From: Candidatus Poribacteria bacterium
GTDB lineage: Bacteria > Poribacteria > WGA-4E > GCA-2687025
Reading direction: 5' to 3'
Length of the DNA: 64,000 bases
NCBI GenBank assembly: GCA_963665845.2
Contig: OY762492.1
Coordinates: 1,152,001 to 1,216,000, forward strand
Shown: one piece after another, positions 8,064 through 56,677 of the stretch
Layout of the letters: each line of letters starts with the position of its first letter
Position numbering within the stretch: the stretch's first letter is position 1
The notes under the pieces: model-generated
The model's database searches: none
What the model was told of the DNA's origin: nothing
The model's input: the letters and a program-made list of their open reading frames with translations, nothing else
Position numbers and translations under genes: made by a program

Positions 8064-8142
8064 CCGCTTGGCGAACGCGGACGTCGTCTGCGCCGCCTCT
8101 AGATTCCCGCTTACGCGGGAATGCATGTCCTCGCGGAAGGGC

Positions 8143-8293: not shown

Positions 8294-8316
8294 CCCCGCG
8301 GAAGCGGGGAACGAAC

Positions 8317-8484
8317 CTGACCTTACGTCTTTAGTTGGGACATGCCGGCGGACGAACGCAGACGTCTTCTGCGACGCCTCTAGATTCCCGCTTACGCGGG
8401 AATGACGGCTTGGTTAGCGGCGCCTTTTTCCCATGAATAAAGCGATCGTCGGTTCGAATGTCCCAACTTTAGGCGTGAGGTCAG
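8317..8484. mobile_element. MITE family A with an 8-bp target-site duplication GAACGAAC
   Basis: CTGACC...GGTCAG ends; GAACGAAC at 8309-8316 and 8485-8492. Confidence 0.9.
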
Positions 8485-8526
8485 GAACGAACTGGTTGAC
8501 AACGCCTTTCCCACTGGCGGCGTTGA

Positions 8527-10831: not shown

Positions 10832-10864
10832 GCGGGCGTCGCGTTCTCCTTCGTTTTTCCGCTG

Positions 10865-13055: not shown

Positions 13056-13098
13056 CTCTCTCCACCGGCTTATGATCAGTTGACGCGGCTTGCGGTTT

Positions 13099-14892
13099 TC
13101 ATTCGTCCATCGAGAGCGCCGCCGTGAACGCCTCCTGCGGCACTTCGACGCTGCCGACCGCTTTCATGCGTTTGCGCCCCTCTTTCTGCCGTTCCAGCAG
13201 CTTTCGTTTACGGGTGATGTCCCCGCCGTAACATTTCGCGGTGACATTCTTGCGAATCGCTTTGACCGTCTTGCGCGCGACGACCCGCCGTCCGATGGCG
13301 GCTTGTATCGCCACATCGAAGAACTGGCGCGGGATGACCGCCTGCAGCTTTTCAGCCAAAGCGCGTCCCCGTTCGCCCGCGTTCTCCCTGTGAATGATGA
13401 GCGACAGCGCATCGAGAGGCTTTCCGTTTAGGAGAATGTCCAGCTTCACCAGATCCGACTCGCGGTAACCAATCAGCTCGTAGCTCATGGAGCCGTAGCC
13501 GCGCGTGGACGATTTTAACTTGTCAAAAAAGTTGACGACCATCTCGCTCAACGGCAGCTCGTAATGGATCGCGGCGCGCGTCGGCGTGAGATACTCCAGC
13601 GATTGGTAGGTCCCGCGGCGGCTCTCGCACAGCTCCATTGCCGCGCCGATATATTCGGCGGGGACGCTCAACTGAACCGACGCGCACGGCTCTTCGATGG
13701 ACGCCAATTCGCCCAACCCCGGCATATCGGACGGATTCTCGATCTCCAGCACATCGCCGCCGTTCGTCAACACCTGATACCGGACATTCGGAGCCGTTCT
13801 GATGAGCGTCAGGTTATACTCCCGTTCCAGCCGCTCCCGCACAATGTCCATATGTAACGGACCGAGAAAACCGCACCGAAAACCGAAGCCGAGAGCGTCC
13901 GAGGTTTCCGCCTCATAGGTGAAGGAGCTTTCGTTCAGGCGCAGCTTGTCCAGCGCCTCCCGCAGCGCCGAAAAGTCGGAGCTGTCCGCCGGGTAGAGAC
14001 CGCAGAAAACGAACGGCTGCATGTCGCGGTAGCCTGGGCATGGCTGCGCCGTCGGGTTTGCCCCGTCGGTAATCGTGTCGCCGATGCGCGTTTGGCGGAT
14101 GTCCTTGATGTTCGCGGTGATATACCCGACCGAGCCTGCTTTCAGCTCCTCGACCGGCGTCATGCGCGGCGCGAAGACGCCCACCTCCGCCGATTCGCGT
14201 TCGTCGCCCGCCGCCATCAAACGTATCGGCATCTTGCTGCGCAGCGACCCGTCCATCACGCGGACGCACATGACGACGCCGCGGTAGGTGTCGTAATGCG
14301 AGTCGATGACGAGCGCTTTCAAGGGGGCGTTCAGGTTGCCTGACGGGGGCGGAATTCGCTGAACGACCGCCTCCAGCGCGTCTTCCACCCCGACGCCGTT
14401 TTTGGCGCTGATTTGCAGTATCTCTTCCGCGGGCGTTCCCAACAGGTCTTCAATCTCTTCAGAAACGAGATCGATTTGGGCGGAAGGGAGGTCGATCTTA
14501 TTCAGCACAGGGACAATCTCCAGCCCCTGCTCCAGCGCCAAGGTGGCGTTGGAGACGGTCTGCGCCTGTATTCCCTGCGCGGCGTCCACCAGCAGCAAGG
14601 CGCCTTCGCAGGCGGCGAGGCTCCTTGAAACCTCATAGGTGAAGTCCACATGCCCCGGCGTGTCGATCAGGTTCAGCTCATATTCGCTGCCGTCTTTTGC
14701 GGCGTAGGACAAGCGGGCGACCGCCGCCTTGATCGTGATTCCGCGTTCCCGTTCAAGGTCCATCGTATCGAGAGCCTGATCGCGCATCTCCCGTTCGTCC
14801 AGAGCGCCGGTCGTTTCAAGCAGGCGGTCGGCGAGCGTGGACTTGCCATGATCAATATGGGCGATGATGCAAAAATTGCGCGTTCGTTTCAT
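13099..14892 (-). CDS. lepA: Elongation factor 4
   Basis: [18 protein letters not shown] and [14 protein letters not shown] motifs. Confidence 0.98.
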
Positions 14893-14895
14893 TTT

Positions 14896-16080
14896 TTAAA
14901 GTATCTCATCGTATAGTCGGCAAAGCTTTTCGGTGATGACGCCCCATCCATGTTCCCGCTCCACATATCGGCGCCCGGCGTCGGCTAAGGCGCGCTGCCG
15001 ATCCCTGTCCTTTAATAACGATATAACCTCTTGGGCGAATTTGTCTTGATCATTTGCTTCCAGCAGCTCATGTCCGTTTCGGGCGCCGCAGCCCTGCCTT
15101 CCGAGCGGCGTGGTGACAACGGGCAGTTTCATCGCCATCGCTTCCAGATTTTTCGTTTGAACGCCGGAGCCGCAGAACATCGGCGCGGCGAAGATGTCCG
15201 CCTCTTCAAAATAAGGGCGCAGATCGGGCGCCGCGCCTGTAACAACAACGCCGCTCCGCCCGTTCAATCGGCGCAGCGGCCGCGGGGGACTAGTACCCGC
15301 CAGGATGAGCCGCGCGTCCGGAAACGCTTCGCGCACCTTCGGCAGCGTGTCATGAACAAGAAACATCGCCGCGTCGGTGTTCGGGAAATAGTTCATCGTC
15401 CCGGTGAAAAGAATCGTCGGCGGACCGTTTCGCTCTGGACGGGAGGGGGAGAAGTAGTCTAAGTCGACTCCCTGCGAGACGATGTCAAGCCGCGCGTCCG
15501 GCGCCGTCTCATGGATCGCGTCTCGGTCGTCCGCGGCGATGACGACGGTACGGTCGAACGCCTGGATGATCTCCGCTTCATACCGCCGCGCCCGTTTCTC
15601 TTCAATCTTCAAAAGGGGTCGGTTGAGCGGGTTGCGTTCGCGCTCCATTCGCCGGCGCAGGTTCATCGCCATTGAGTCGCACAGGTCCAGCAGCTTCGGC
15701 AGCGGCTCCTCCGCCACATACCGCCCCATCCGAAACAGCGAGGCATGGACGGCGTCCGGCGCGCTTTCGTCGATGGCTTTACGCACCGCGTCCGCCATGC
15801 GCGTCGATCTCCACATGGCGTTTTGAAGCGGCTCGTTTCCGAACAGGCTCGCGGCGGCGCGCGCCCGCCCTTTCCATGCGGAATGCGGCGCGGGGTAGAT
15901 CTCGGCGCACATCTCGCGCAGCGGTCCAAGATTGTCCAGCTCGCTTCGCTTTTCAAAAAACGCCGCCAGCGCGATTCGATACTTTTCCTGCAGTCCGCGT
16001 ATGAAATGGAACGCGCGGATTCGGTCGCCCCGATGAGGCGGATACGGCAATCGCAAACTGAGGAACAGAAGATTTTTCAA
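14896..16080 (-). CDS. Glycosyltransferase family 4 (GT-B)
   Basis: PYPPHRGDRIR, FTGTMNYFPN and KNLEAMAM motifs; TTG start chosen right after the secA stop. Confidence 0.85.
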   Translation of the reverse strand: MKNLLFLSLRLPYPPHRGDRIRAFHFIRGLQEKYRIALAAFFEKRSELDNLGPLREMCAEIYPAPHSAWKGRARAAASLFGNEPLQNAMWRSTRMADAVRKAIDESAPDAVHASLFRMGRYVAEEPLPKLLDLCDSMAMNLRRRMERERNPLNRPLLKIEEKRARRYEAEIIQAFDRTVVIAADDRDAIHETAPDARLDIVSQGVDLDYFSPSRPERNGPPTILFTGTMNYFPNTDAAMFLVHDTLPKVREAFPDARLILAGTSPPRPLRRLNGRSGVVVTGAAPDLRPYFEEADIFAAPMFCGSGVQTKNLEAMAMKLPVVTTPLGRQGCGARNGHELLEANDQDKFAQEVISLLKDRDRQRALADAGRRYVEREHGWGVITEKLCRLYDEIL

Positions 16081-16081
16081 G

Positions 16082-18604
16082 CTAAGCGTTCCGCCCGCAG
16101 CACAGTTTGAATTTTTTGCCGCTGCCGCATGGACAGGGCGCGTTCCGCCCCACTTTTTTGCCGGTGGAGCTGCGGGGGGCGCGTCTCTGCGGCGGCGCCG
16201 CTCCGTTGCTCTTCCCGCCGGCTGTTGGCGCGGGCTGCTGCGGCGCCGTCTGAAGCTGAACGCGGTACACATACTGCGCGGCGTCCTCATAAATGCGCGT
16301 CAACATGTTTTGAAAAAGCGCAAAGCCCTCGTTCTGAAACTCAATGAGCGGATCGCGTCCGGCGTATCCTCTAAACCCGATCCCCTCCTGAATGTAATCG
16401 ATGTTGTGAAGATGCGACATCCAGTGGTAATCGATCCGATCCAGCAGGATGAGACGCTCGATCTCGCGCATGACCTCCTCGCCCAGCTCCCGCTCCCGCT
16501 CCTCATACCGCTTCTGGAAAATCTGAAGCAGCGTCTCTTGAATCTCATCGCGCGGCGTCTCTCGGTTGATGAGATGCGCCGGCGGAGGCTCCACGCCGCA
16601 CTGCCGCTCCATCCATGTCCGCAGCGCCTCGGCGTCCCACTCCAGCTGGTCGTCTTCGGGCAGCGTCTCGTCCATCTTGGCGGTGAGCGCATCCTCCACC
16701 ATCTGGAGCATGTCTTCGCGCAGGCTTTCCTGTTCGATGGCGCGGTCGCGCAGGTCGTACACCATATCGCGCTGCTGGCTCAAAACATTGTCGTATTTGA
16801 GGATCTGTTTGCGCGCCTCAAAATGGTTCTGTTCAACCCGCTCCTGCGCCTTCTGTATCGACTTGGAGAACCACTTATGCTCCATCGGGACATCCTCTTC
16901 GATGCGGAACTTGTCCATCATCCCCGCCATGCGGTCGGAGCCGAACTTGCGCATCAGGTCGTCTTCAAGCGACAGGTAGAAACGGGAGGCGCCGGGGTCG
17001 CCTTGACGCCCAGAACGCCCGCGCAGCTGGTTGTCGATGCGCCGCGAGTCATGCCGTTCGGTTCCGATCACATACAGCCCGCCCAGTTCGAGGACGCCGT
17101 CCGCCAGTTTGATGTCCACCCCGCGGCCCGCCATATTCGTTGCGATGGTGACCGCATGTTTTTGTCCGGCATGGGCGATGATTTCGCCCTCCTTCGTATG
17201 CTCCTTCGCGTTCAGGACGCGGTGGGCGATGCCGCGCTTTGTCAGCTCGCGGCTGAATTCAACCGACGCTTCAATGGAGATGGTGCCGACCAGAACAGGG
17301 CGGCCCGCGTTGAAATTCTCCGCTATGTCGTTGATGACCGCTTGTACCTTGCCTCGATGGTTGCGGAAGACCAGGTCGTCGCGGTCGTCCCGGATCATCG
17401 GCATGTTGGTCGGCACGACGACCACATCCAGCCCGTAGATTTGGTGAAACTCGCTCGCTTCGGTCGCCGCGGTACCTGTCATCCCAGACAGCTTTTCGTA
17501 CATGCGGAAATAGTTTTGAAAGGTGATGCGCGCCACCGTCTGGCTCTCTTCGACGATGCGCACCTTTTCTTTCGCCTCAATCGCTTGATGCAGCCCGTCG
17601 CTGAACCGGCGCTCCGGCTGCATGCGCCCCGTGAACTCGTCCACGATGACGACCCGCCCGTCTGTCACCACATAATCCACATCGTTTTGGTACAGATAAT
17701 GCGCGTTCACTGACTGCATGATGTGATGCAGCAGGTCGATATTTTCAGGGTCGTACAGGTTTTTTAAAGAGAAAGCGTTTTCAAGCAGGTCGATGCCGTC
17801 GTCGGTCAAGGAGGCGGAGCCGCGCTTGGAGCGTTTTTCATCGATCTCAAAATGCTTCTCTTTTTTCAAACGGGAGACGACGCGCGCGATGCGCGGATAT
17901 TCCGCTTTCTCCTTCCGCCGCTCCGAGATGATATGCGGCGTCCGCGCCTCGTCAATCAGGATGGAGTCCACCTCATCCACGATGGAGTAATGCAGTTCCC
18001 GCTGCGTCTTCTCTTCGATGGAGCGGGCGCTGCTGTGGTCGCGCAGATAATCGAACCCGAACTCGGAATTGGTGCCGTAGGTGATGTCGCATTCGTACGC
18101 CGCTTTTTTGACGCTTCGGGGGCGCCCCTCTAGGGTGATTCCGACCGTCATGCCGAGCGCCTTGTAGATCTGCCCCATCCAGTCGGCGTCTCTCTGCGCC
18201 AGAAACTCGTTCACCGTCACGACATGGACGCCGCGCCCGGTCAGCGCGTTCAGATAAACAGGCATCGTGGAGGTGAGCGTCTTGCCCTCCCCCGTCCGCA
18301 TTTCGGCGATGCGCCCTTGATGAAGAACAACTGCGCCGAGAATCTGAACGTCATACGGACGCTCGCCAATCTGCCGCCATGCCGTTTCGCGCACCACAGC
18401 GAACGCCTCCGGCAACAGATCGTCGGTCGTTTCGCCGTTGGAGAGCCGTTCCCGAAATTCTGCCGTCTTTCCCGACAGCTGTTCGTCTGTCAGGTTTTTC
18501 ACTGACGGCTCCAGCGCGTTCACCCGCTCCACAACATGGCGCAGTTTTTTCAGGTCGCGGTCGTTTTTCGATCCGACAATTTTTTCCAATACGTAGCCTA
18601 ACAT
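16082..18604 (-). CDS. secA: Preprotein translocase ATPase SecA
   Basis: MRTGEGKT, DEVDSILIDEARTP, TNMAGRG and C-terminal CPCGSGKKFKLCC. Confidence 0.98.
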   Translation of the reverse strand: MLGYVLEKIVGSKNDRDLKKLRHVVERVNALEPSVKNLTDEQLSGKTAEFRERLSNGETTDDLLPEAFAVVRETAWRQIGERPYDVQILGAVVLHQGRIAEMRTGEGKTLTSTMPVYLNALTGRGVHVVTVNEFLAQRDADWMGQIYKALGMTVGITLEGRPRSVKKAAYECDITYGTNSEFGFDYLRDHSSARSIEEKTQRELHYSIVDEVDSILIDEARTPHIISERRKEKAEYPRIARVVSRLKKEKHFEIDEKRSKRGSASLTDDGIDLLENAFSLKNLYDPENIDLLHHIMQSVNAHYLYQNDVDYVVTDGRVVIVDEFTGRMQPERRFSDGLHQAIEAKEKVRIVEESQTVARITFQNYFRMYEKLSGMTGTAATEASEFHQIYGLDVVVVPTNMPMIRDDRDDLVFRNHRGKVQAVINDIAENFNAGRPVLVGTISIEASVEFSRELTKRGIAHRVLNAKEHTKEGEIIAHAGQKHAVTIATNMAGRGVDIKLADGVLELGGLYVIGTERHDSRRIDNQLRGRSGRQGDPGASRFYLSLEDDLMRKFGSDRMAGMMDKFRIEEDVPMEHKWFSKSIQKAQERVEQNHFEARKQILKYDNVLSQQRDMVYDLRDRAIEQESLREDMLQMVEDALTAKMDETLPEDDQLEWDAEALRTWMERQCGVEPPPAHLINRETPRDEIQETLLQIFQKRYEERERELGEEVMREIERLILLDRIDYHWMSHLHNIDYIQEGIGFRGYAGRDPLIEFQNEGFALFQNMLTRIYEDAAQYVYRVQLQTAPQQPAPTAGGKSNGAAPPQRRAPRSSTGKKVGRNAPCPCGSGKKFKLCCGRNA

Positions 18605-19551
18605 GGCTCTACCTCGCCTTTCGCCTCCCCGTTCCTGCCGCTCTTCATTAAAACGTTGTCTCCCCAAATTCGTTGCCTTAAATCGATATAGATGATCGCG
18701 TTGCCGACCGAGACGCCGCTAAAGAGATACGCAGCGGACGCCCATAAGGTCAAGATCAACACGGACGCGCCGATCCAAACCCCAATCTGAAGCGGCAATT
18801 CATCAAGCGGCGCCGGCGGAGCCGACAACGAGAAAAAGCTGCCGAACAACGCAACAGACGCCTCCGCTATCCCGCCCAGCGCTGCAGCCTGCGTCAACAA
18901 AAACAGCCCCGCCAACGACGCCCCCGCAAAGAGAGACGCCGACAGCGCCGACATGAGCAGCGCGGCAACCTCATAAAAAAGAACGCGCCATCCCTGCGAC
19001 CAGCACATGACAACCAGCTGGTAGGAGGTTTCCATGCCGCTCTCTCCGCTGACGCCTGCGATAGACGGCAGCAACAGCAGACCGAACATCCATACAAACA
19101 GCGAGAACATCAGCAGCAAACCGACCAACAGCCCCGGTATGAGCGTCAGCATTCCCAGCCCCGTCCACCAGTTGCCGAGAAGTTTGCCGAGCGCCCCGCC
19201 GAGATACGCCAGTCCAAGAAGCGCCGCCGGTAGGAGCGTCAAGACGGCGAGCGGCGCCAGTACCGCTTTGAGCGTCCGCCAGGACGCCCGTTTTGCCTCC
19301 GCAAAAAAATCGCCCTCCAGCTGAAGGATCGTCAAGCGCGCCGAGGCGGCAGAGCCAGGGATCGCCGCCAGAGCCGCCGCGGCGCACACCAGCGCCGTCT
19401 TCATCGGCGTGAACGGACCCCAGAACCGCGCAACCGCCCATATGACCGCCAACGCCGCCAACGCCCCCGGCGCATGCAGCGCCATCTTCCGATCCGAGAA
19501 CGCCCATCTAGGGATATTGAGCAGGTCAAGCGCGCCGCCTCGCAGGCTCAT
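18598..19551 (-). CDS. Multi-pass membrane protein of unknown function
   Basis: Several hydrophobic segments; in an operon-like run between dapA and secA. Confidence 0.7.
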   Translation of the reverse strand: MSLRGGALDLLNIPRWAFSDRKMALHAPGALAALAVIWAVARFWGPFTPMKTALVCAAAALAAIPGSAASARLTILQLEGDFFAEAKRASWRTLKAVLAPLAVLTLLPAALLGLAYLGGALGKLLGNWWTGLGMLTLIPGLLVGLLLMFSLFVWMFGLLLLPSIAGVSGESGMETSYQLVVMCWSQGWRVLFYEVAALLMSALSASLFAGASLAGLFLLTQAAALGGIAEASVALFGSFFSLSAPPAPLDELPLQIGVWIGASVLILTLWASAAYLFSGVSVGNAIIYIDLRQRIWGDNVLMKSGRNGEAKGEVEPC

Positions 19552-37627: not shown

Positions 37628-37933
37628 ATGGCGACCATTACGCGCGTTTCCGGCGGATTTAAGAACGATGCGCTGTCTTTGAAAATTACAAGCGGATCGT
37701 TGATTGAGTGGACAGACAGCCGCGGCGTCGGAAACTGGATCGTAGTGGAAGCGAACGGAACGCTTGAAGGCCAATGCTCATTCGGCGGCGGTCTTGGCGA
37801 TGTGAAGCTGATTTCTGAAGACAAGGTGTTTGTCGGGCAAGCGCTGATCAAACACGCGCAGATAACGCCGATGTCGACACGATTTGATCTGCTGGGAACG
37901 GACGATCTTGTACGTCAAAGGCTGGAGCCGTGA
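37628..37933 (+). CDS. Hypothetical 101-aa protein inside the MTase-HNH array
   Basis: Upstream AAGGA; its stop overlaps the start of copy 4 (GTGA). Confidence 0.6.
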   Translation: MATITRVSGGFKNDALSLKITSGSLIEWTDSRGVGNWIVVEANGTLEGQCSFGGGLGDVKLISEDKVFVGQALIKHAQITPMSTRFDLLGTDDLVRQRLEP

Positions 37934-39150
37934 ATCTCAAAAATCGCACGCTGTTTATCGCCGACAATCTGGACATCATGCGCGGGATCGATTCCGAAAG
38001 CGTTGACCTGATTTATCTTGACCCGCCCTTCAACACGAAACGGGAGTATAAAGCCCCCATCGGATCGCCCGCTGAAGGCGCGACTTTCAAAGACATTTGG
38101 ACAGACGAAGACGTCAAAGAAGAATGGCGCGGAGAGATCGCGTCGCGGCATCAGGATTTATACGAAGCCATCAAAGCGACCGAGACGATTTACGACAGGT
38201 CAATGGCGATCTACATGACCTCCATGTCGATCCGTCTTTTTGAGATGCGGCGCATCTTGAAAGATACGGGAAGCATTTACCTGCATTGCGACCCGACAGC
38301 GAGCCACTACCTCAAAACATGCATGGACAGCATTTTTGGAAAATCCAATTTCCGAAATGAGATCGTGTGGTGGTACTACAATGTCGCCGTCACCAGCAAA
38401 AAATTCTACGGCAGAAAGCACGACATCATCTTATTCTACTCAAAGAAATCGAACTGGACATTCAATCCTGACAGCGTCCGCGTTCCTTACGCGGAGGACA
38501 GCAACTGGGTCAAAAATGCGGAAAGCTACGGAGACGAGCGGTATAAGCCAGACGAGAGAGGAAAATTGTCGTCCGACGTTTTTGCGATTCCAACCATAAA
38601 CAACATGGCTAAAGAGCGCACGGGTTGGCCGACTCAAAAGCCGTTGGCTCTTTTGGATCGGATCATCAAAGCGTCCTCCAAAGAAGGCGATTATGTGTTC
38701 GATCCGTTTTGCGGCTGCGCGACAGCATGCGTCGCCGCGGAACTTCTGGGCAGGCGGTGGGTCGGCATCGACATCTCCCCCAGCGCGGAGGTGATCACAA
38801 AATACCGCTTAGACGAAGCCCGCCATACGCTGGAAGGAACGCAGACCTTCGACCCTGAAGCGGATGTCATCGTCCTGCGCGAACCGCCGAAACGAACCGA
38901 CATCAAAGAGCCTCGCCCCGCCGATTTCAAACCGCAGCTCTACAGTAAGCAGAACGGAGAATGCACAGGCTGCAGGATTCATTTTCCGTATCGGAACATG
39001 ACGATAGACCATATCCGCGCAAAGTCGAGGGGCGGGCCGGACACCGTCGACAACCTGCAGCTGCTTTGCCACGCCTGTAACTCCGCCAAAGGGACCGGGA
39101 CGCAGGAGGAGCTGTTAGCGAAGTTGCGAGAGCGCGGCGTTATCGAATAA
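37930..39150 (+). CDS. Beta-class DNA methyltransferase-HNH fusion, copy 4
   Basis: Same architecture; central segment 38377-38613. Confidence 0.9.
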   Translation: MNLKNRTLFIADNLDIMRGIDSESVDLIYLDPPFNTKREYKAPIGSPAEGATFKDIWTDEDVKEEWRGEIASRHQDLYEAIKATETIYDRSMAIYMTSMSIRLFEMRRILKDTGSIYLHCDPTASHYLKTCMDSIFGKSNFRNEIVWWYYNVAVTSKKFYGRKHDIILFYSKKSNWTFNPDSVRVPYAEDSNWVKNAESYGDERYKPDERGKLSSDVFAIPTINNMAKERTGWPTQKPLALLDRIIKASSKEGDYVFDPFCGCATACVAAELLGRRWVGIDISPSAEVITKYRLDEARHTLEGTQTFDPEADVIVLREPPKRTDIKEPRPADFKPQLYSKQNGECTGCRIHFPYRNMTIDHIRAKSRGGPDTVDNLQLLCHACNSAKGTGTQEELLAKLRERGVIE

Positions 39151-43043: not shown

Positions 43044-43121
43044 CATGAAGCCTCATCAACCGACGACTCATTATATAAGGGTTTGGCGCGGGAACGGCAA
43101 ACCCGCCCCCGCGCGCCCTCC

Positions 43122-43198
43122 TGTCATTCCCGCGTAAGCGGGAATCTAGAGACTGACCCGAACCGATCAAATCTCCAACCCCTTTCAAGTGGGGGATC
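43122..43198. repeat. ATTCCC-N8-GGGAAT palindrome plus a CCCCTTTCAAGTGGGG unit between convergent genes
   Basis: Direct inspection. Confidence 0.7.
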
Positions 43199-43207
43199 CG
43201 CTATGTC

Positions 43208-46200
43208 CTATTTCAACACAATCATGCGCCGAAGCCCCGTGAACGAACCCGCCTCAATGCGGACATAATAAATGCCGCTGGCGACAGGTTCGCCCAGGCT
43301 GTTCCGTCCGTCCCAATGGGCGGCTTTGGCGCGGCTGCGGTAGGCGCCCGCCGGCAACTGCCCAAGCTCCAACACGCGCACGGTTTGACCTGACGAGTTG
43401 TAGATCGTCACCCTCACGCGGCTTGAATCTGTCAACTCAAACGGGATCCAGGTTTCTGGGTTGAACGGGTTTGGGTAGTTCGGAAGCAGCGCCGGCTCGC
43501 TCGGTATGGCGGTCGCCAGCAGTTTGCCGATGTCCATGCGCCCCGAGGCGACAGACTCCTTGTCCAGAACGACGCGAACCGTTTGAACGCCGCCGAATGT
43601 CCCGCTCGAATCGAACACACGCAGATCAAAAGCGTCGCCGATGGCGTAGCTGTCCCCTGTCAACGCCAGAAGCGGCAGCGAGAAACGGCCAGAAATGGAG
43701 CCGCTGCCCGCCAGGTCAGACGCTGTCTGTCCAGTCTGCAGGTTCGCAATGGAAATCTCTAACCCGTTCAGCGGCGCGAGATTGTCCTCCCGCGCGACGG
43801 AACCCTCCACCACAAGAAGCGGCGTTGAGGACGGGTCGTACGCGACCGCCTCCGCGGACGCAGCGGCAGTCGCCGCGTCGTTTGACCATGCGGAGCCGTC
43901 GAAGGTCAAGACGGTTTCCGCTGCCGCCACGATAAAATAACCGTCGCCGCCCTTCGCCGCGTCGGTCGAGTCGGTGGAGAGCTGAAAAAGGGGGCTGCCG
44001 GCATCGTCATGCTTCAAGGCAATCACGGTCAGCGGAACGGTTGAAAGATCCGCCAAATCCCCGATGGTCTCAACGGCGCCGGCGCGCGTGACGCCGATCA
44101 TATTGATGCCGGCGCGCAGCGGAACTTCAGGCTTCAAAAGGCCGCCCATGAACGTGACCGACTTGGAATTCTTCATACTCACAAGCGCGCCCGCATGATC
44201 CAACAACGCCATTTCGCCAGCGGGGCCTGGAATGCCGGTGTAAGCGGCAAATTGTCCGTCTAGTTTCTGCGTCAGAATGTAGAGAACATCGCCGCTCCCG
44301 CCCAGCTTGTTGTACAGGTCGCCAACATTCTTTAAGCCGTCCACCTTCACAGGAACATGGATCAGATTCAACCCCTTTTTGAGCTGAAGCGTAAAGGAAG
44401 TCGTAGGCGCAAGTTCAACGAAGTAAATTTTTGTGACGCTTTCATTTCCATCAGCGGCGTTGTCCGGAATGATGACAATGACAATGCCTGAGCTGGACGG
44501 CGCAATTGTCGCTGTGTAGGAAGCGCCGGAGCCTGCGAACTCGGTTACGGTCCCGTTGACCACATCAATATCCGACTCTTCGAAGCCCGCGACCGCCTGA
44601 CTGAATTCGATCTCCAATTCAAATGGACCTGTTTGCGCCCCGCTCGGACCGGAGACGGTCACAGTTGGGCGGGCTGCAGGAACTTCAATGTCGCTGATGT
44701 CCCAGATCCGAATCGTGTTGTCGTCGCTGCCGCTGGCAAGCGACTGACCATCCGGTGAATACGCCACGGAACTGACACTACCCGTATGCCCTTGGAGGGT
44801 TCGTATCAGCGCTCCCGTGTTGGCGTTCCAGATGCGTATCTCGTTAAAGCTGCCGCCGGCGATGGTCTGACCATCCGGTGAATACGCCACGGAAGCGATC
44901 AAATGCCCATGTCCTTGGAGGGTTCGTATCAGCGCTCCCGTGTTGGCGTTCCAGATGCGGATCGTGTCGCTGCCGCTGGCGATGGTCTGACCATCCGGTG
45001 AATACGCCACAGAAAAGACCGAAATCGTATGTCGGATGGTTCTGATATGCGCTCCCGTGTTGGCGTTCCAGATCCGAACCGTGTTGTCTCTGCTGCCGCT
45101 GGCGATCGTCTGGCCATCCGGTGAATATGCCACAGAAAAGACATCACCAATACGCTCTGAAAGCCTTCGTATCTGCGCTCCCGTGTTGGCGTTCCAGATA
45201 CGTATCGTGTCGTCATAGTCGCCGCTGGCGATCGTCTGACCATCCGGTGAATACGCCACAGAAAAGACCCAACTCGTATGTCCCTGGAGGGTTCGTATCT
45301 GCGCTCCTGTGTTGGCGTTCCAGATCCGAACCGTGGAGTCGTAGCTGCCGCTGGCGAGCGACTGACCGCCCGGAGAATACGCCACAGAACTGACCCAATA
45401 CGTATGTCCCTGGAGGGTTCGTATCTGCGCTCCTGTGTTGGCGTTCCAGATCCGAATCGTGTTGTCAAGGCTGCCGCTGGCGAGCGACTGACCATCCGGT
45501 GAATACGCCACAGACAAGACTGCAGCCGTATGTCCTGTAAGGACCCGCGGCCCTCCGGTATCAGCGTTGACAGAGTAGGAGTTGGAAGCGGTGTTGTTCC
45601 CCGCGGCGTTGGCGGGGACGCTCACTGTAACGGTTCCGGAGCTGGACGGCTGAATCGTCGCCGTGTAGCTTGCGCCGCTGACGGCAAGGTCGATCACCGA
45701 GCCGTTCGTCACAACGATGTCGGACGACGTGAAACCTGTGACGGCGGAGCTGAACGCGATCGTCACATTGAACGCGCCTGTTTGCGTCCCGCTCGGACCG
45801 GAGACGGTCACAGTTGGGCGGGCTGCAGGAACTTCAATGTCGCTGATGTCCCAGAGGCGTATCGTCCTGTGGCCGTCCCCGCTGGCGAGCGACTGACCAT
45901 CCGGCGCATACGCTACGGAATTGACATCTCCCGCATGACCTGTAAGCGTTCGTATGTGCGCGCCAGTGTTGGCGTTCCAGATGCGTATCTTGGCGTCGTA
46001 GCCGCCGCTGGCGATCGTCTGACCATCCGGTGAATACGCCACAGACCTGACCCCATCCGTATGCCCTGTAAGCGTTCGTATCTGCGCTCCCGTGTTGGTG
46101 TTCCAGATGCGTATGCCTCTCCAGTTGCCGCTGGCGATCGTTTGACCATCCGGTGAATACGCCACAGAATAGACAGCAATCGTATCTCCTGTCAGCGTTC

Positions 46201-49200
46201 GTATCAGCGCTCCCGTGTTGGCGTTCCAGATGCGTATCGCGCCGTCATAGCTGCCGCTGGCGATCGTTTGACCATCCGGTGAATAAGCCACGGAACTGAC
46301 ACCATTCGTATGCCCTGTCAGCGTTCGTATCAGCGCTCCCGTGCTGGCGTTCCAGATGCGCATCGTGTTGTCGCGGCTGCCGCTGGCGATGGTCTGACCA
46401 TCCGGTGAATACGCCACGGAAAGGACCCGATCTGTATGTCCCTGGATGGTTCGTATCTGCGCGCCTGTGCTGGCGTTCCAGATGCGTATCCTGCCTCCCC
46501 AGCTGCCGCTGGCGATCGTCTGGCCGTCCGGTGAATACGCCACGGACGAGACACCAGACGTATGCCCTGTCAGCTCTCGTATCTGCGCTCCCGTGTTGGG
46601 GTTCCATATGCGTATCGAGCTGCTGGAGCTGGCGAGCGACTGACCATCCGGTGAATACGTCACGGAAAAGACACCGCCGTTATGGGCTGTCCAGACTCGC
46701 GGCCCTCCGGTTTCAGCGTTGACAGAGTAGGCGCTGGAGGCGGTGTTGTTCCCCGCGGCGTTGGCGGGAACTCTCACTGTAACGGCTCCGGAGCTGGACG
46801 GCTGAATCGTCGCCGTGTAGGATGCGCCGCTGCCGGTCAAGCTTGTCACGGAGCCGTTCGTCACAACGATGTCGGACGACGTGAAACCTGTGACGGCGGA
46901 GCTGAACGCGATCGTCACATTGAACGCGCCTGTTTGCGTACCGCTCGGACCAGACACGGTTGCCGTTGGGCGGGCTGCAGGAACTTCAATGTCGCTGATG
47001 TCCCAGATCCGAACCGTGTTGTCGTCGCTGCCGCTGGCGAGCGACCGACCGTCCGGTGAATACGCCACGGTACGCGCCACAGCCGTATGCCCTGTAAGCG
47101 TTCGTATCAGCGCGCCAGTATTGGCGTTCCAGATCTGTACTATACCTCCCCCACTGTTGCTGCCCCCGCCGCCGGCGATCGTCTGACCGTCCGGAGAATA
47201 CGTCACAGAAAAGACAGCTCTATGCTGTTGAGTTTGGAGATGCGCTCCCGTGTTGGCGTTCCAGATGCGGATCGGCGGGTTGCCGCCGCTGCCGCTGACG
47301 ATCGTCTGACCATCCGGCGCATACGCCACGGACAAGACATTGCCCGTATGTCCTGAAAGCGTTCGTATCTGCGCGCCAGTGTTGGCGTTCCAGATGCGGA
47401 TCGCGGCGTCGTAGTCGCTGCTGGCGATCGTCTGACCATCCGGCGCATACGCCACGGAACTGACCCAATCCGTATGTCCCTGAAGGGTTCGTATCAGCGC
47501 TCCTGTGTTGGCGTTCCAGATGCGTATCGTGTTGTCCCAGCTGCCGCTGGCGATGGTCTGACCATCCGGAGAATACGCCACGGAACTGATGTGACTTGTA
47601 TGCCCTTGGAGAGTTCGTATCAGCGCTCCTGTGTTGGCGTTCCAGATGCGTATCGTCTTGTCAACGCTGCCGCTGGCGATCGTCTGACCATTCGGAGAAT
47701 ACGCCACTGACATGACATAATGTGTATGCCCTGTCAGAGTTCGTATCAGCGCTCCCGTGTTGGCGTTCCAGATGCGTATCGTGCGGTCGCTGCTGGCGCT
47801 GGCGATCGTCTGACCGTTCGGTGAATACGCCACAGACACGACTCCATCCGTATGCCCTGTCAGGACCCGCGGTCCTCCGGTATCAGCGTTGGCAGAGTAG
47901 GTATTGGAAGCGGTGTTGTTCCCCGCGGCGTTGGCGGGGACGCTCACCGTAACAGTTCCGGAGCTGGACGGTTGAATCGTCGCCGTGTAGCTTGCCCCGC
48001 TGCCGGTAAAGCTTGTCACGGAGCCGTTCGTCACAACGATGTCGGACGATGTGAAATCCGTGACGGCGGAGCTGAATGAGATCGTCACATTGAACGCGCC
48101 TGTTTGCGTCCCGCTCGGACCGGAGACGGTCACAGTTGGGCGGGTTGCAGGAACTTCAATGTCGCTGATGTCCCAGATGCGTATCGTTCTGTCGCGACTG
48201 CAGCTGGCGAGCGACTGACCATTCGGCGCATACGCCACAGAAAGGACCCAATCCGTATGTCCCTGGAGGGTTCTGATATGCGCTCCTGTGTTGGCGTTCC
48301 AGATGCGTATCGTATCGTCAATGCTGCCGCTGGCGATCGTCTGACCATCCGGCGCATACGCCACAGAATTGACCCAATCAGTATGTCCCTGGAGGGTTCG
48401 TATCAGCGCTCCTGTGTTGGCGTTCCAGATGCGTATCGTATCGTCGTCGCTGCCGCTGGCGATCGTCTGACCATCCGGCGCATACGCCACGGAATAGATA
48501 AAACGCCCATGTCCTTGGAGGGTTCTGATATGCGCTCCTGTGTTGGCGTTCCAGATCCGGATCGTGTTGTCAAGGCTGCCGCTGGCGAGCGACTGACCAT
48601 CCGGCGCATACGCCGCGGACCTGACCACACCCGTATGCCCTGTAAGCGTTCGTATCAGCGCGCCAGTGTTGGCGTTCCAGATCCGAACCGTGTTGTCGTA
48701 TCTGCCGCTGGCGATCGTCTGACCATCCGGTGAATACGCCACAGAACTGACCCGAACTGTATGCCCCTGGAGGGTTTGTATATGCGCTCCCGTGTTGGCG
48801 TTCCAGATCCGGATCGTGTTGTCAAGGCTGCCGCTGGCGATCGACTGACCATCCGGCGCATACGCCACAGACAAGACATAATCCGTATGCCCTTGGAGGG
48901 TTCGTATATGCGCGCCAGTGTTGGCGTTCCAGATGCGTATCGTGTTGTCCCAGCCGCTGCTGGCGATCGTCTGACCGTTCGGTGAATACGCCACAGACAC
49001 GACTCCATCCGTATGCCCTGTCAGGACCCGCGGCCCTCCGGTTTCAGCGTTGACAGAGTAGGTATTGGAAGCGGTGTTGTTCCCCGCGGCGTTGGCGGGG
49101 ACGCTCACCGTAACGGCTCCGGAGCTGGATGGCTGAATGGTCGCCGTGTAGCTGGCGCCGCTGCCGGTCAAGCTTGTCACGGAGCCGTTTGTCACAGTGA

Positions 49201-50314
49201 TGTCGGACGACGTGAAACCTGTGACGGCGGAGCTGAACGCGATCGTCACATTGAACGCGCTTGTTTGCGTCCCGCTCGGACCGGACACGGTTGCCGTTGG
49301 GGTGATGTCCCAGAGGCGTATCGTGTTGTCGCCGCCGCCGCTGGCGATCGTCTCACCATCCGGTGAATACGCCACGGAACTGATGTGACTTGTATGTCCT
49401 TGGAGGGTTCTAATATGCGCTCCTGTGCTGGCGTTCCATATCCGAATCGTGTTTTCACTGCCGCCGCTGGCGATCGTTTCACCATCCGGCGCATACGCCA
49501 CGGAATTGACGGTAAAAATCGTAGGTCCTTGGAGGGTTCGTATCAGCGCGCCTGTGTTGGCGTTCCAGAGCCGAACCGTGGAGTCCCAGCTGCCGCTGGC
49601 GAGCGTCTGACCATCCGGAGAATATGCCACGGACCAGACATCATCCCCATGCCCTGTCAGCGTTCGTATCAGCGCTCCCGTGCTGGCGTTCCAGAGCCGA
49701 ACCGTGGTGTCGTAGCCCCCGCTGGCGATTGCCTGACCATCCGGAGAATACGTCAAGGATTGGACCCGATCTGTATGTCCTGTCAGCGTTCTGATATGCG
49801 CTCCTGTGCTGGCGTTCCAGAGCCGAATCTTGGAGTCGAAGCCGCCGCTGGCGAGCGTCTGACCATCCGGTGAATACGCTAAGGACAAGACTCCGTTCGT
49901 ATGTCCTGTCAGCGTTCTGATATGCGCTCCCGTGCTGGCGTTCCAGATACGAATCGTGGATTCGTTGTCGTTGTCGCTGCCGCTGGCGATGGTCTGACCA
50001 TCCGGCGAGTACGCTACGGGTCTGACCGTACTCGTATGCCCTGTCAGCGTTCTGATATGCGCTGCTGTGTTGGCGTTCCAGATGCGAACCGTGTTGTCGT
50101 AGCTGCCGCTGGCGATGGTCTGACCATCCGGCGAATACGCCACGGACACTACAACACCTGTATGCCCTGTCAGGACCTGTTGCGCGCTGCTGTTTTCAGC
50201 AACGAGGCAGACGCTCAGAAGCGCAGCCGCTAGGACAGCGGACCAAGCGGGGGTTACGTCACGTGTGAATTTCATGTGCGCGACACTCTTGATGTTGAAT
50301 CTGTGGAACCTCAT
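43208..50314 (-). CDS. Giant probably secreted protein: 5 x (7-blade WD40 propeller + Ig-like domain) plus a C-terminal FlgD-Ig/sorting-like domain
   Basis: 35 repeats of [30 protein letters not shown] and five VSGPSG.QT..F Ig-like modules. Signal-peptide-like N-terminus and C-terminal [27 protein letters not shown]. The start may be 50275. Confidence 0.92.
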
Positions 50315-50498
50315 TTATGCGGCTCTCCTCTCGAGTTGCCTGTGCGCAAACCAGTGTAACGCCGGCATCAGCCGGAACGATTGCATTAGAGTATAACACA
50401 TGCGGGGGAGGGTATGCATCCAAAACGGCTGGGCAGTTTTAAAGGGAAAGGAAGAAAATGCGCGCCTCATACGCCCATCGAATGCGGCAGCCGAACGC

Positions 50499-52104
50499 GA
50501 TGAAAACGGAGAGTTATCTGTACGGCGTCGAAACACTGAACGGGCATGACGCATGGAAGCTCATGAAGGCATGCGCCGCCGGCGACGAGAACGCCGTTGA
50601 ACAGCTGCTTCAAAAAGACGCGCGCCTTGTGAACGCGCAGTACTGGTATCAGCATCCGATCCATTTTGCCGTTCGAGAGGGGCATGCCGATCTTGTCCAA
50701 ATGCTGCTGGACGCCGGCGCGGAGCCTGGGCGGTCGCGTTATATGTACCGCGCATGGCGGTATTTATTAGAAGAAGCGGCGCAGCGCGACTACGGCGCCG
50801 TACGCGAATTGCTTGAAGCAGAAATGAAGCGTCGATACGGGTACGACCGCGATTTTGAATCGCTCGCCGAGGCGATTCGAGAGCGCGACCGAACAACCGT
50901 TGAGCGCCTTGTGAACGAGAACCCGCGCCTCCTCCATGCCGCCGACGCGGACGGAAACAACGCGCTCCACTGGGCGGCGCATACGATACAGCTGGAACTG
51001 ATCGACCTGTTCATCGGGCTTGGCGTCGACATGAACGCGCGGCGCGCCGACGGACAAACCCCCGCCATGACCGCCATGAACGGCGACTACTGGCATCGGC
51101 GGTGGAAGTTATTGCCGAAAGGCGCGCTCAAAGATGAACGGCGCGCCGTTGAGCGTCTTCTTCAGCGCGGCGCCGAATATGAGCTGTCCGCCGCAATTCA
51201 TATGAAAGACGCGGCGCGCGTCCATGAGCTGTTGAAGGCGCGCCCTGCGCTTGCGCGTCAGATCGATTCCTCGCATAGAAGCCCGCTGTTTTATGCGGCG
51301 CGCGCCCAGCAAACCGACATCGCCGATACGTTATTAAAAGCGGGCGCCGATCCAAGCGCGCCTGAAACGTTGGCGCCGCGCGGGCGCGCCCTCCATGAAG
51401 CCGCCGCGCAAAGCCGAGTCAAATTGACGCGCCTGCTCCTTGAACACGGCGCCGACCCGAATAGCGATGTCGATTCGTCAGGAAACGCGCTCTTCATCTC
51501 CCAAAACAACAACCCCGACGGACCCGCCGGCGAACAGGTACGGCAACTTCTGATCCAGTACGGCGCTGCGAAGGCTCCATACGATATGTCTCTTGAGGAG
51601 CTGACAGCGGCGCTGCATTCCGACAATCCGCCGCTGCATGATGAGCAGTTTGTCAGCTCCGTCTATGAAACGGACGACGAGGAGGCGGTTCAAACGCTCA
51701 TTGAAAAATATCCTGAAGCGCTGGATATGCTGCCGATCGTCGGGGCGCGTTACCCCTCTTCAACAAACCTAGCGGCGCTCTTAGACGCCGGCGCCGACCC
51801 GAACGCCCCAGACTGGCTCGGCAAAACGGCGCTGCATTTCGCCGCGGAAAAGGGCGATCTCGAAGCCGTTCAACTGCTCATCGAGCGCGGCGCCGACATC
51901 AACGCCGTGGAGGCGGAATACCGCGCAACGCCGCTCGCCGAAGCGGCCGGCGGCGGACGGCTCGACATAGCGCGCTTGCTTTTAGAGAACGGCGCCGATC
52001 CGCATATCCCCAACGACGCCTGGGCAAGACCGATCGCATGGGCGAAGCGGAACGGGCATGCTGAAATGGAGGCGCTGCTGATGGAACGCGCCCCGCCCCG
52101 CTGA
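50499..52104 (+). CDS. Ankyrin repeat protein (start may be 50458)
   Basis: Repeated ALHWAA / ALHEAA / GKTALHFAA..G..LL..GAD motifs. Confidence 0.9.
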
Positions 52105-54333: not shown

Positions 54334-55554
54334 TCATTCTGGTTCCTCGTCCATTTGAAGTTCGGGAAACGGGTTCCGGGCTTCTTCCCAGACCGCGCTG
54401 TCGGCGGCGGCGAGGCGTTCGTCAAGCAGGCATGCGTCGAGGCGAGCGCGTATCGCCGCTTCGGGCATCTGCTGCCCGATGAAAACGATCTGCTGCGCGC
54501 GATCGCCGAAGCGGGGATGCCAGTCCGGTTGCCGGTCTGGTCGTTGATCCTCTGGATGCTCCCAGTGTTCGCGAGGTACCGCCGCCCACCACATCCCAAA
54601 AGGTTCCACACTGCTGACGCCGCCAGCTTGCGCCCACTCGTAGACGACCCGATGGTCCGCGGCGACCCAAAAGAAGCCCTTCGAGCGAAGTACGCCGGTC
54701 CAGTTCTCGTCGTCATGCAGGAACTTCCACAGCTTCTCGGCGTCGAAGGGTTGAGACGTCCGATAGGTGAAGCTCGATATTCCGTATTCCTCAGTCTCCG
54801 GCGTGTGCTTACCCTGAAGCTCTCGAATCCAGCCGGCGGAGCTCTCCGCCTTCTCGTAGTCGAACAGGTTCGTATTGAGCACGTTTTCGAGCGGGACCTG
54901 TCCGCGCGTCGTCTTGAGGATCCGGGCGCCGGGGTTGAGCGCTTTCACGATAGCCTCGACCTTGAGCGCCTCATCACGGCTCACGAGATCAAGCTTGTTG
55001 AGCGCGATGACGTCGGCGAACTCGATCTGGTCGATGAGCAGGTCGGTTACCGTCCTGTGATCTTCTTCGCCCAGCGATTCACCGCGCGCCTGGAGCGTGT
55101 CGGCGGCGTTGTAGTCCTGCAGAAAGCTCGCTGTGTCAACGACCGTGACCATCGTGTCGAGACGCGAAACATGACTCAGGCTCACACCGTTCTCGTCCTC
55201 GAAGGTGAAGGTCTGCGCGATCGGAATAGGCTCCGAGATCCCTGTGGACTCAATGAGCAAGTAGTCGAAGCGATCCTCCTGCGCGAGCCGCAAGACCTCG
55301 GCGAGCAGGTCGTCTCGCAGCGTGCAGCAGATGCAGCCGTTCGTCATCTCGACCAGCTTCTCCTCGGTCCGGGAGAGTTCTGCGCCGCCGCGCTCAACGA
55401 GCGCGGCGTCAATGTTGACCTCGCTCATGTCGTTGACGATGACCGCGACGCGCATGCCCTCGCGGTTGTTAAGCGCGTTGTTGAGTAGTGTGGTCTTGCC
55501 TGCGCCGAGAAAGCCGGACAGGACAGTAACGGGAAGTTTCTTGGATAGGGACAT
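54334..55554 (-). CDS. COG0523/CobW GTPase metallochaperone (ZigA/YciC-like)
   Basis: GFLGAGKTT, NGCICCTLR, ESTG, NKLD and RSKG motifs. Confidence 0.93.
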   Translation of the reverse strand: MSLSKKLPVTVLSGFLGAGKTTLLNNALNNREGMRVAVIVNDMSEVNIDAALVERGGAELSRTEEKLVEMTNGCICCTLRDDLLAEVLRLAQEDRFDYLLIESTGISEPIPIAQTFTFEDENGVSLSHVSRLDTMVTVVDTASFLQDYNAADTLQARGESLGEEDHRTVTDLLIDQIEFADVIALNKLDLVSRDEALKVEAIVKALNPGARILKTTRGQVPLENVLNTNLFDYEKAESSAGWIRELQGKHTPETEEYGISSFTYRTSQPFDAEKLWKFLHDDENWTGVLRSKGFFWVAADHRVVYEWAQAGGVSSVEPFGMWWAAVPREHWEHPEDQRPDRQPDWHPRFGDRAQQIVFIGQQMPEAAIRARLDACLLDERLAAADSAVWEEARNPFPELQMDEEPE

Positions 55555-55630: not shown

Positions 55631-56677
55631 TCACCTGTTGCCCGTTCGCCAAACCGTCGCGCCGCCCTGAGCGTCAAGCGCCGCAAGCGCGCGTCCATCT
55701 GGTCGCCAGTACAAGGCGCTGACAGCGTCTGCCACAAGCGCAATTCCTGTCGGATTGCCTTGTCCATCGCGCCTGAGCGACCACACAACTACGCCGCCAT
55801 CCCGAGCTCCCGAAGCCAGGCGCATCCCGCGGCGAGCGAAGGCGAGCGTTGTGACAGGTTGAACATGAAGGTCCAGAACGCCGGGCCGCGCGCCTTCGGG
55901 ACCGCTTCCCCGAAAGCTCCAGACCGTCACCGCCTCGCTTCCGCCGGTGGCCAAAAGGGCTCCCGTGTCATCGAAAGCCAGAGCCGACGGTTTGCCAGGA
56001 TATCCGGACATCATGGAGTCCTGCTTCGTGGAGCGACGCCAGAAATGCACCGAGTTGTCCTGGCTGCCGCAGGCAACGATTTCCCCGTCCGGACTCAGCG
56101 CCATCGACACCAGGGAGCCTTTCCACTCCAGCTTCTGGCGACGTTCCCCCGTGGATGCGTCGAAGAACATCACTTGACCGTAACAGGCCGTTGCCAGCTC
56201 CCCTGCGCTGGACCAGGCGATCGCGCTGACGGTACTGGGATGATCATCAGATCGCCAGACCTCTCCGCCGTCGGCGCCATACGCGCAAACCTGCCGGGAG
56301 CAGGAGGCCGCCAGCCATTGGCCGTCCGGCGACCACGCCACGTTCTCCACCCAATCGCTGCCGACGTCGATAGCCTGTTTTACCTGACCTTCGGCGACAC
56401 TCCAGATAAGGACTCGTCCGTCCTGGCCAGCCGTAGCGAACTCGGTTCCGCTTGGGTGGATCGCCATCGCGAGCATGCCGCCATCATGAGCCCCCTGCCG
56501 GTCCCAGGCGCTTGCGCCGGACTTGCCGTCGAACGCGTAGATGCCGCCCGCGGCGTCGCCGACCGCCAGCGCCTCACCGCGGAGGGTCCAGCCCCCGGCG
56601 ATGGCGTAGTCGCCGACCACGGCAGACCAGCCCCGGCGAAGAACACCCTTTGGGCTGACGAGATTCAAATCAGACAT
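55631..56677 (-). CDS. WD40 repeat protein associated with CobW
   Basis: WD40 repeats; lies between two COG0523 genes. Confidence 0.88.
   Translation of the reverse strand: MSDLNLVSPKGVLRRGWSAVVGDYAIAGGWTLRGEALAVGDAAGGIYAFDGKSGASAWDRQGAHDGGMLAMAIHPSGTEFATAGQDGRVLIWSVAEGQVKQAIDVGSDWVENVAWSPDGQWLAASCSRQVCAYGADGGEVWRSDDHPSTVSAIAWSSAGELATACYGQVMFFDASTGERRQKLEWKGSLVSMALSPDGEIVACGSQDNSVHFWRRSTKQDSMMSGYPGKPSALAFDDTGALLATGGSEAVTVWSFRGSGPEGARPGVLDLHVQPVTTLAFARRGMRLASGARDGGVVVWSLRRDGQGNPTGIALVADAVSALYWRPDGRALAALDAQGGATVWRTGNR

Follow-up and report, generated by a model that had tools for sequence, protein, structure and literature searches.

The DNA analysed here is a 64,000-nt stretch (the window, in which all coordinates without a prefix are counted) of a Candidatus Poribacteria genome (G000), and it contains an open reading frame (ORF) at 43208-50314 on the minus strand which encodes a WD40 repeat protein of 2,368 aa. 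This gene, hereafter the focal gene, was compared with its paralogs in G000, whose 3.95-Mb contig carrying the gene is denoted C1, with a second genome of the same genus (G001) and with separately extracted loci (L-numbers). The protein consists, in this order, of a predicted signal peptide, five modules of seven WD40 blades plus a Big_12 Ig domain, a beta-sandwich linker of about 300 aa and a TIGR04183 tail, and the balance of the evidence points, with some reservation, to an exported multivalent binder, with concerted evolution of its blades and selection for new residues at the contacts. The features of the gene are as follows.

50250..50434, minus strand: 5' block that a twin gene also has, comprising the first codons and 120 nt upstream (7 of 185 nt mismatched)
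50325..50329, minus strand: AGGAG, probably the ribosome-binding site, 10 nt ahead of the ATG at 50314 (found in the sequence; presumed function)
50183..50314, minus strand: predicted Sec signal peptide, aa 1-44 (by eye: basic N-region, hydrophobic core, S-S-A before QQVL)
49310..50182, minus strand: WD40 propeller 1, seven blades, aa 45-335 (PF00400)
49034..49309, minus strand: Ig-like spacer 1 (Big_12; PF19078, 43.9 bits, cut-off 27)
48173..49033, minus strand: WD40 propeller 2, aa 428-714 (closest structure 2YMU, E 8e-186)
47873..48172, minus strand: Ig-like spacer 2 (90-92% DNA identity to spacers 1, 3 and 4)
47003..47872, minus strand: WD40 propeller 3, aa 815-1104 (blade parsing)
46703..47002, minus strand: Ig-like spacer 3 (Big_12; PF19078, 44.0 bits)
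45851..46702, minus strand: WD40 propeller 4, aa 1205-1488 (blade parsing)
45551..45850, minus strand: Ig-like spacer 4 (spacer DNA comparison)
44702..45550, minus strand: WD40 propeller 5, aa 1589-1871 (blade parsing)
44411..44701, minus strand: divergent Ig-like spacer 5 (Big_12; PF19078, 47.1 bits; 65-69% identity to spacers 1-4)
43511..44410, minus strand: linker of about 300 aa, kept across Poribacteria (alignment; model pLDDT 83)
43208..43510, minus strand: C-terminal sorting domain resembling type A of type IX secretion (T9SS), and stop codon (TIGR04183, 35.4 bits, cut-off 23)

An earlier reading of the DNA made without database searches (the sequence-only reading) had described five propellers of seven blades, each followed by an Ig-like spacer, and blade parsing confirmed this, with 35 blades in five groups of seven; that reading had passed over the signal peptide, the linker and the T9SS-type tail. 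Over the whole protein PF00400 scored 1262.8 bits in 33 stretches, which assigns it to the WD40 repeat proteins, with a blade period of 40-46 aa and intact DHSW tetrads in 24 of the 35 blades. The Big_12 model scored above its cut-off in all three spacers scanned, and the distinction drawn earlier between four near-identical spacers and a divergent fifth holds in the DNA (90-93% identity among spacers 1-4, 65-69% for spacer 5). Homology of propeller 2 to its closest solved structure, PDB 2YMU (Npun_R6612), suggests a seven-bladed fold; a single-sequence AlphaFold model of modules 1-2 was poor (pLDDT 58.6), and Foldseek on this model gave no match at E<=0.001 and was uninformative. Regarding the C-terminal part, the last approximately 105 aa of the linker are predicted to form a transthyretin-like/CnaB beta-sandwich (Z 9.5 against the carboxypeptidase D transthyretin-like domain, model pLDDT 83), fold comparison of its first approximately 175 aa gave no clear match, and a search of the linker against the ESM Atlas returned only scores below 0.9. 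The model of the tail (pLDDT 83) matched the PorU C-terminal domain (Z 10.3), tied with other Ig folds, and in Pfam the tail reached 26.4 bits with PF18962, just under the cut-off of 27, and 45.3 bits with FlgD_ig.

Hypervariability is found in five of the 42 blade columns (16, 17, 19, 35 and 37), each of which contains 9-13 amino acids and 13-19 codons, and all other columns have at most nine codons. Columns 16, 17 and 19 follow GHT and columns 35 and 37 lie around a conserved Asp, in agreement with the earlier statement that variation is concentrated after GH(T) and after ASG. The residue sets at columns 17, 19, 35 and 37 differ among all 35 blades, and the hot-spot residues are rich in Y, W and F (29 of 136) as well as S, N, G, R and D and include neither E nor C, a bias that resembles antibody paratopes. 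Codons 7, 9, 25 and 27, which are under selection in the fungal HNWD receptors, flank the conserved codons 8 and 26 (PMC1805685; this and the other papers given by PMC number are cited for the excerpts of them that were available), a spacing matched by columns 17, 19, 35 and 37 around V18 and D36, and the WD40 top-face hot spots R1-2, R1 and D-1 (PMC3419727) correspond to columns 17, 19 and 35. Since the four columns were prespecified from these two papers, the test sites are independent of the present data. Mapping to the top face follows homology rules and 2YMU, because the single-sequence propeller model was poor.

With a shared silent rate, the ratio of nonsynonymous to silent substitution (omega) was 4.5-6.7 at columns 17, 19, 35 and 37 compared with 0.34-0.35 in the scaffold (p<1e-24), and omega above one at the hot sites was likewise obtained for all eight G000 paralogs fitted, namely those with at least eight usable blades (4.3-39.5), and for two of three G001 genes. 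A tree-free test, in which a neutral codon was built from the four-fold sites of the focal gene, gave a neutral mean of 6.8 codons per column and a 95th percentile of 12, against the 13-19 seen. That the top-face residues simply drift under relaxed constraint, the protein being a structural or decaying surface spacer, is highly improbable: nonsynonymous divergence (pN) of 0.56-0.70 in the hot columns does lie near the silent divergence (pS) of the most variable silent sites (about 0.65), but each of the five columns has more codons than the neutral bound allows, omega exceeds one in 11 of the 12 genes fitted, the ORF is intact and the DHSW tetrads are kept (24/35). Mutation of the variable codons by a diversity-generating retroelement would account for column 16 being mostly NNT (30/35) and column 37 mostly NNC (27/35), as AAT and AAC templates would yield, but PF00078 had no match in G000 (about 90% complete; control search positive in 3 of 14 genomes) and silent adenines next to these sites have been retained (CGA 22/32, ACA 17/17); with no reverse transcriptase found and these adenines conserved, such an element is scarcely credible here.

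Regarding the ancestry of the blades, the statement that their scaffold is nearly invariant even in DNA went too far, given an identity of 0.82-0.84 and a scaffold pS of 0.32. Six of the 22 four-fold sites are invariant and the rest are split near 50:50, silent variation being overdispersed 8-fold. Rare codons are common to the blades (GGT in 33/35, with a genome use of 8%; TCA in 18/26, 7%; ATA in 22/29, 14%), and these near-fixed codons, together with a scaffold pS well below the 0.69 of saturation, argue that the blades have a recent DNA ancestry in common. Mean blade identity is 0.75-0.77, the closest pair is 93% identical and mean protein identity over the 26 ungapped blades is 0.70.

Within the gene, several lines of evidence point to recombination. 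Ig spacers 1-4 have a pS of 0.165 (confidence interval 0.10-0.23) compared with 0.325 (0.27-0.38) for same-position blades, with non-overlapping intervals; spacers half as diverged as blades imply that blades were replaced after module duplication or that spacers were homogenised later, both of which need recombination. Linkage (r2) falls from 0.15 at distances below 10 nt to about 0.035 at larger ones (p=0.015), and a PHI-like test gave p=0.001-0.02 on scaffold sites of the focal gene and p=0.001-0.018 on pooled third positions, both significant. The absence of clustering by position was found for blades 2-6 (p=0.69), which show a weak propeller effect (p=0.006), and was lost once the end blades were included (p=0.0004); the blade-1 positions cluster, with 75 nt in common between blade 1 of propeller 2 and of propeller 3 (P2B1/P3B1). 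Blade heads recurring at non-equivalent positions had also been taken as a sign of shuffling. HTSHISS in P1B7 and P3B3 is an exact 32-nt DNA match spanning three hypervariable codons and is the only convincing DNA copy among the shared heads; HTDRV heads have 19 nt in common and HTDWV heads 10-21 nt, and HTNGV heads differ at both variable codons (AAC GGA and AAT GGT) and are therefore no DNA copy. Blade pairs matching at codons 16 and 17 number 6 against 2.6 expected (p=0.041), and those matching at codons 16, 17 and 19 number 2 against 0.21 (p=0.023), one of the two being a same-position pair.

The focal gene belongs to a large family. G000 has 106 genes with at least four blades (1,226 blades), 47 tail-bearing genes and 34 genes with both, and the 16 large WD40 paralogs consist of an N-terminal part, propellers mostly of seven-blade units, Ig spacers and a C-terminal part of one of two types, either linker plus tail, as in the focal gene, or a segment of about 110 aa plus tail (the segment being dockerin-like in the twin, by eye). 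Both types are present in G000 and G001, and four genes of the short-segment type have a conserved propeller before the segment. With the C-terminal 400 aa as query, 75 of the 78 loci found were from Ca. Poribacteria.

Blade trees and pools were restricted to ungapped blades (26 of the 35 focal ones) and omitted blades with a mean identity to the focal set below 66% (G000) or 60% (G001); the trees rest on 105 nt and have low resolution. On the 179-blade tree, changes of species label number 7, compared with 34-45 after shuffling, and the gene label within G000 changes 66-67 times over 134 blades from 11 genes (minimum 10; shuffled 87-102), so that repeats group by species and are mixed among loci in the manner of HNWD genes, one paralog excepted. 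The nearest neighbour of an ungapped focal blade lies inside the gene for 18 of 26 and is tied with or in another gene for 8 of 26, and focal third positions are closest to two genes of the other C-terminal type (0.73-0.74 vs 0.68-0.70). The nearest relatives of the focal blades and spacers lie in genes with the other C-terminal type, and both types occur in both species, so modules or blades have moved between genes. None of the 341 blades of other genomes (some genes counted twice) was more than 81% identical to any focal blade; in metagenome contigs a blade motif scan gave no matches and an Ig-spacer scan gave 12 distant loci, the best at 53%.

These data also bear on an account that largely dispenses with exchange, in which one blade was amplified as in WRAP proteins, duplication of modules and genes followed the split of the species, and selection then drove the hot spots apart with little further exchange, the mosaic signal arising by homoplasy. 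New propellers are indeed described as arising by independent single-blade amplification (PMC9218822), and diverse hot spots in highly repetitive WD40 proteins are described without invoking exchange (PMC5587647). Neither identical blades nor alleles were seen, blade-1 positions cluster (the 75 nt of P2B1/P3B1) and the blades of G001 are mostly gene-specific (11-12 changes, six genes), all of which would fit. Such a history nevertheless leaves unexplained the Ig spacers half as diverged as same-position blades, the identical 32-nt head in P1B7 and P3B3, the 8-fold overdispersed silent variation and the single blade pool across genes of two older C-terminal types, and it is considered unlikely, though it deserves to be taken seriously. 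The earlier suggestion of top-face hot spots under diversifying selection with HNWD-like concerted evolution is supported by per-site omega above one, by inner blades that do not cluster by position and by blades common to several loci.

A twin of the focal gene is located at C1:3,477,877, 2.28 Mb away, and its 5' block matches at 178 of 185 nt (96%). Same-index blades of focal gene and twin have 12% hot-spot identity at a scaffold pS of 0.29, whereas the conserved terminal propeller of four G000 and three G001 genes has 79% hot-spot identity across species at a scaffold pS of 0.35, a contrast which shows that hypervariability belongs to one propeller class and not to WD40 top faces generally. 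The conserved propeller, which probably has a fixed binding partner, gave matches at E<=1e-90 in just 4 of 121 class genomes; together with the dockerin-like segment it is seen at L108 (G000 C1:3,481,898-3,482,917) and L109, with 75-86% identity between genes.

The twin has a run of 26 C in its signal-peptide region (G000 C1:3,478,057; L100:1058-1083), out of frame as assembled, which is the sole homopolymer longer than 12 nt on C1, the focal gene having C5 at the equivalent place. A homopolymer in the signal-peptide region is a layout typical of phase-variable surface antigens, and the tract is a candidate phase-variation switch; among the sequencing-run contigs searched for its length, none spans it. 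In the twin (L100), the top-face loop that precedes strand a of blade 3 in propeller 1 holds an insertion of about 70 aa containing two cysteines, which is an extra domain grafted at a hypervariable site.

Diversifying selection, predicted surface display and the C26 tract of the twin would also be expected if the residues varied for escape, with the protein exposed on the surface to phages, predators or immune receptors of the sponge whose recognition is evaded. This is improbable, as variation is confined to the predicted top face, the other exposed loops (NANTGA, SPDG) show conservation, as do Ig spacers 1-4, and the variable residues are rich in aromatics; a pattern in which only the predicted binding face varies, with aromatic-rich residues, favours binding over escape.

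Alleles were sought in contigs of four runs (X1-X4) from one study with at most three samples, contigs in which rare variants are lost. These match the flanks of the gene exactly and include exact pieces inside it (perhaps being source data), and together with a longest exact internal repeat of 89 nt and the position of the gene inside a 3.95-Mb contig this makes it unlikely that the repeat order is an assembly artefact, a doubt raised with the original description. All 12 run-contig joints listed (39 further ones were recorded) and all 20 base differences checked, among 40 listed (91 further), trace to G000 paralogs or other focal blades, and an apparent second haplotype at 50289-50330 was rejected, being the twin gene.

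Concerted evolution of the blades of an exported binder thus has to be weighed against a number of results that tell the other way. Regarding selection, the tree-based omega values are inflated by recombination, the hot codons have a higher pS of their own (0.54), omega falls to 2.1 when calculated from the silent sites of these codons, and the remaining G001 gene gave an omega of 1.45 (p=0.15). Regarding exchange, the focal blades retain some gene signal (13-14 changes vs 20-26 shuffled), a G000 gene at C1:2,668,343 groups with a G001 gene outside the G000 pool, and the PHI-like test was not significant for pooled scaffold sites in 9- and 15-nt windows (p=0.90 and 0.71) or, in a 15-nt window, for third positions of the focal gene (p=0.088); the shared-head evidence is weak overall. 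No two of the 35 blades are identical, the longest exact repeat of 89 nt is short beside HNWD repeats of up to 100% identity, and no population alleles were seen in the contigs of X1-X4. The exception at C1:2,668,343 and the gene-specific blades of G001 mean that blade pooling is not universal, and with neither identical blades nor alleles the process looks evolutionary and not like a per-generation switch. The proposed shuffling accordingly resembles sub-blade mosaicism and module exchange over evolutionary time, and not a swapping of whole blades visible within a population. A last counterpoint concerns export, where the SprA- and PorU-like proteins described below score under curated cut-offs.

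WD40 genes with TIGR04183 tails have been reported from Poribacteria, and Por system genes were not found there according to the available excerpts of PMC3909097. G000 encodes a SprA-like protein of 2,205 aa (E 1.4e-53; 181.7 bits against a curated cut-off of 200), which was matched in 41 of 41 related genomes, three PorV/PorQ-family proteins (115.1, 109.5 and 85.4 bits, two of three above the cut-off of 90) and two PorU-like C25 proteins (320 bits against a cut-off of 420). The genes are located as follows.

L122:5098-11712 (minus strand), L123:3844-10771 (plus strand), L124:5290-6555 (plus strand), L126:5090-11278 (minus strand) and L127:5200-6276 (plus strand): SprA-like, PorU-like and PorV/PorQ-like genes

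Of the GldK/L/M/N (PorK/L/M/N) motor, the searches covered GldM, GldN and GldL, which gave no match in G000, though control searches for them were silent everywhere. The focal protein has a type A C-terminal sorting domain (TIGR04183 over its cut-off) and likely leaves the cell by a type IX-like route; the SprA-, PorV- and PorU-like genes may answer the question of export left open in the accessible part of PMC3909097. Tail-bearing genes also form tandem arrays in G000 (C1:1,881,487-1,902,669; 949,701-963,938; 3,890,446-3,912,714), the first two of which lie near PorV/PorU-like and SprA-like genes.

A sequence of events can be proposed for the exported binder, in which the signal peptide would direct Sec export and the C-terminal tail would take the protein through a SprA/PorV/PorU-like (type IX-like) channel, after which each propeller would display a binding face of its own with about 35 variable residues. 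Gene conversion or unequal crossover could supply and spread variants as in HNWD genes, only more slowly, the blades likely being evened out and intermixed by recombination inside paralogs and from one to another, while the contact residues of the predicted top face are likely driven apart by selection. The bacterium likely has a sponge host, and the likeliest targets would be varied surface molecules of the sponge or of microbes, with the protein acting as a receptor or adhesin, possibly towards the host. More speculatively, and with considerable doubt, the Poribacteria may maintain an antibody-like library of exported WD40 binders with a genome-wide blade pool recombined to build multi-propeller surface proteins, hot spots pushed apart in an arms race with ligands of the host or of microbes and some members switched on and off by slipped-strand tracts, all leaving through a type IX-like system so far unrecognised in the phylum, as an extracellular bacterial counterpart of fungal HNWD allorecognition.

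Compared with the fungal HNWD/NWD receptors (het-d, het-e; PMC1805685, PMC4986451), the focal gene shares high internal repeat identity and the same four selected positions, with repeats that group by species and are common to several loci. It differs in that its protein has no NACHT or HET domain and is predicted to be exported, not cytoplasmic; no NACHT was found among the best 25 of 61 Pfam families, the chain being fully covered by signal peptide, WD40, Ig, linker and tail. It further differs in its five separate propellers with Ig spacers and a repeat identity of about 77% compared with up to 100%, and whereas HNWD/NWD alleles are polymorphic among isolates, none were seen here in the contigs of the four runs of one study.

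With the WRAP and other highly repetitive prokaryotic WD40 proteins (2YMU; PMC9218822, PMC5587647) the gene has in common recent blade-level amplification and hot spots more diverse than the scaffold. WRAP blades, however, are near-identical and occur on STAND ATPases, while the focal blades show many silent changes in a protein without STAND and with a predicted signal peptide and a sorting tail, and the excerpts of both papers invoke amplification and not exchange among loci. A WD40 protein counts as highly repetitive when its contiguous repeats have a protein identity among themselves of at least 0.7 (Hu et al. 2017); the focal mean of 0.70 was taken over 26 ungapped blades rather than by their exact rule. 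The focal gene therefore works like HNWD repeats, yet is neither an HNWD nor a WRAP protein.

The poribacterial eukaryote-like proteins with WD40 and TIGR04183 domains (PMC3909097) resemble it in phylum, in the combination of WD40 with a Por-type tail and in their large family; that paper, in the part available, gives the domain pairing only, whereas SprA-, PorV- and PorU-like genes are present and blade evolution is analysed here. As in Bacteroidota T9SS type A cargo adhesins, Ig stalk domains and a C-terminal sorting domain follow an N-terminal signal peptide, here a predicted one, with translocon-, shuttle- and sortase-like genes in the genome, but the present case is from another phylum, its homologs score under most curated cut-offs and the GldL/M/N motor was not found (controls silent).

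Variable hot spots in repetitive bacterial WD40 proteins (PMC5587647), continuous amplification (PMC9218822) and HNWD concerted evolution (PMC1805685; PMC4986451) are in print. No report was found, in a search outside which subscription papers lay, on their combination in an exported symbiont family, on blade-level selection or exchange in Poribacteria WD40 proteins or on SprA/PorV of Poribacteria, and Tables S8 and S9 of PMC3909097 may list the architecture. Sponge symbionts have abundant eukaryote-like repeat proteins, for most of which neither a function nor a route of export is known (PMC8163846), and PMC13747020, in its available excerpts, tests other repeat classes and makes no mention of WD40. 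The present family provides one eukaryote-like subfamily under diversifying selection at the predicted binding face, with a conserved propeller as control, so that individual propellers can serve as concrete baits in screens for ligands. The way in which HNWD repeats evolve is also extended to a bacterial protein predicted to be extracellular, and the family constitutes a natural library of binder scaffolds.

Regarding the genomic neighbourhood, the genes flanking the focal locus (91-92% identical) sit on different contigs in G001, and the WD40 gene and the adjoining ankyrin gene were found at neither G001 flank locus; both genes are located at a synteny break between G000 and G001. The ankyrin-repeat gene (50458-52104, plus strand, 548 aa) is divergently oriented to the WD40 gene and had no G001 match. 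Flanking orthologs have a pS of 0.22-0.29 between the genomes, compared with 0.58 for a DNA methylase fused to an HNH domain (37930-39150, plus strand), above its neighbours; N-termini related to that of this protein were present at other loci (L125, L126). A REP-like palindrome, ATTCC[CG]N8[GC]GGAAT, the core of which resembles Neisseria dRS3, is present at 43120-43145 and at 12 more sites in the window, with 869 copies on C1; as a driver of the diversification these palindromes were rejected, being near 8 of 16 family genes compared with 258 of 758 (p=0.19). The small contigs C2 and C3 of G000 duplicate regions of C1 at 97.4% identity and with many frameshifts, C2 overlapping 7054-19431 of the window, and stem either from noisy reads or from a second strain. 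A single divergent WD40 protein, unlike the variable family, is encoded at 55631-56677 (minus strand) and adjoins a CobW-like GTPase, so assigned from the sequence, at 54334-55554 (minus strand).

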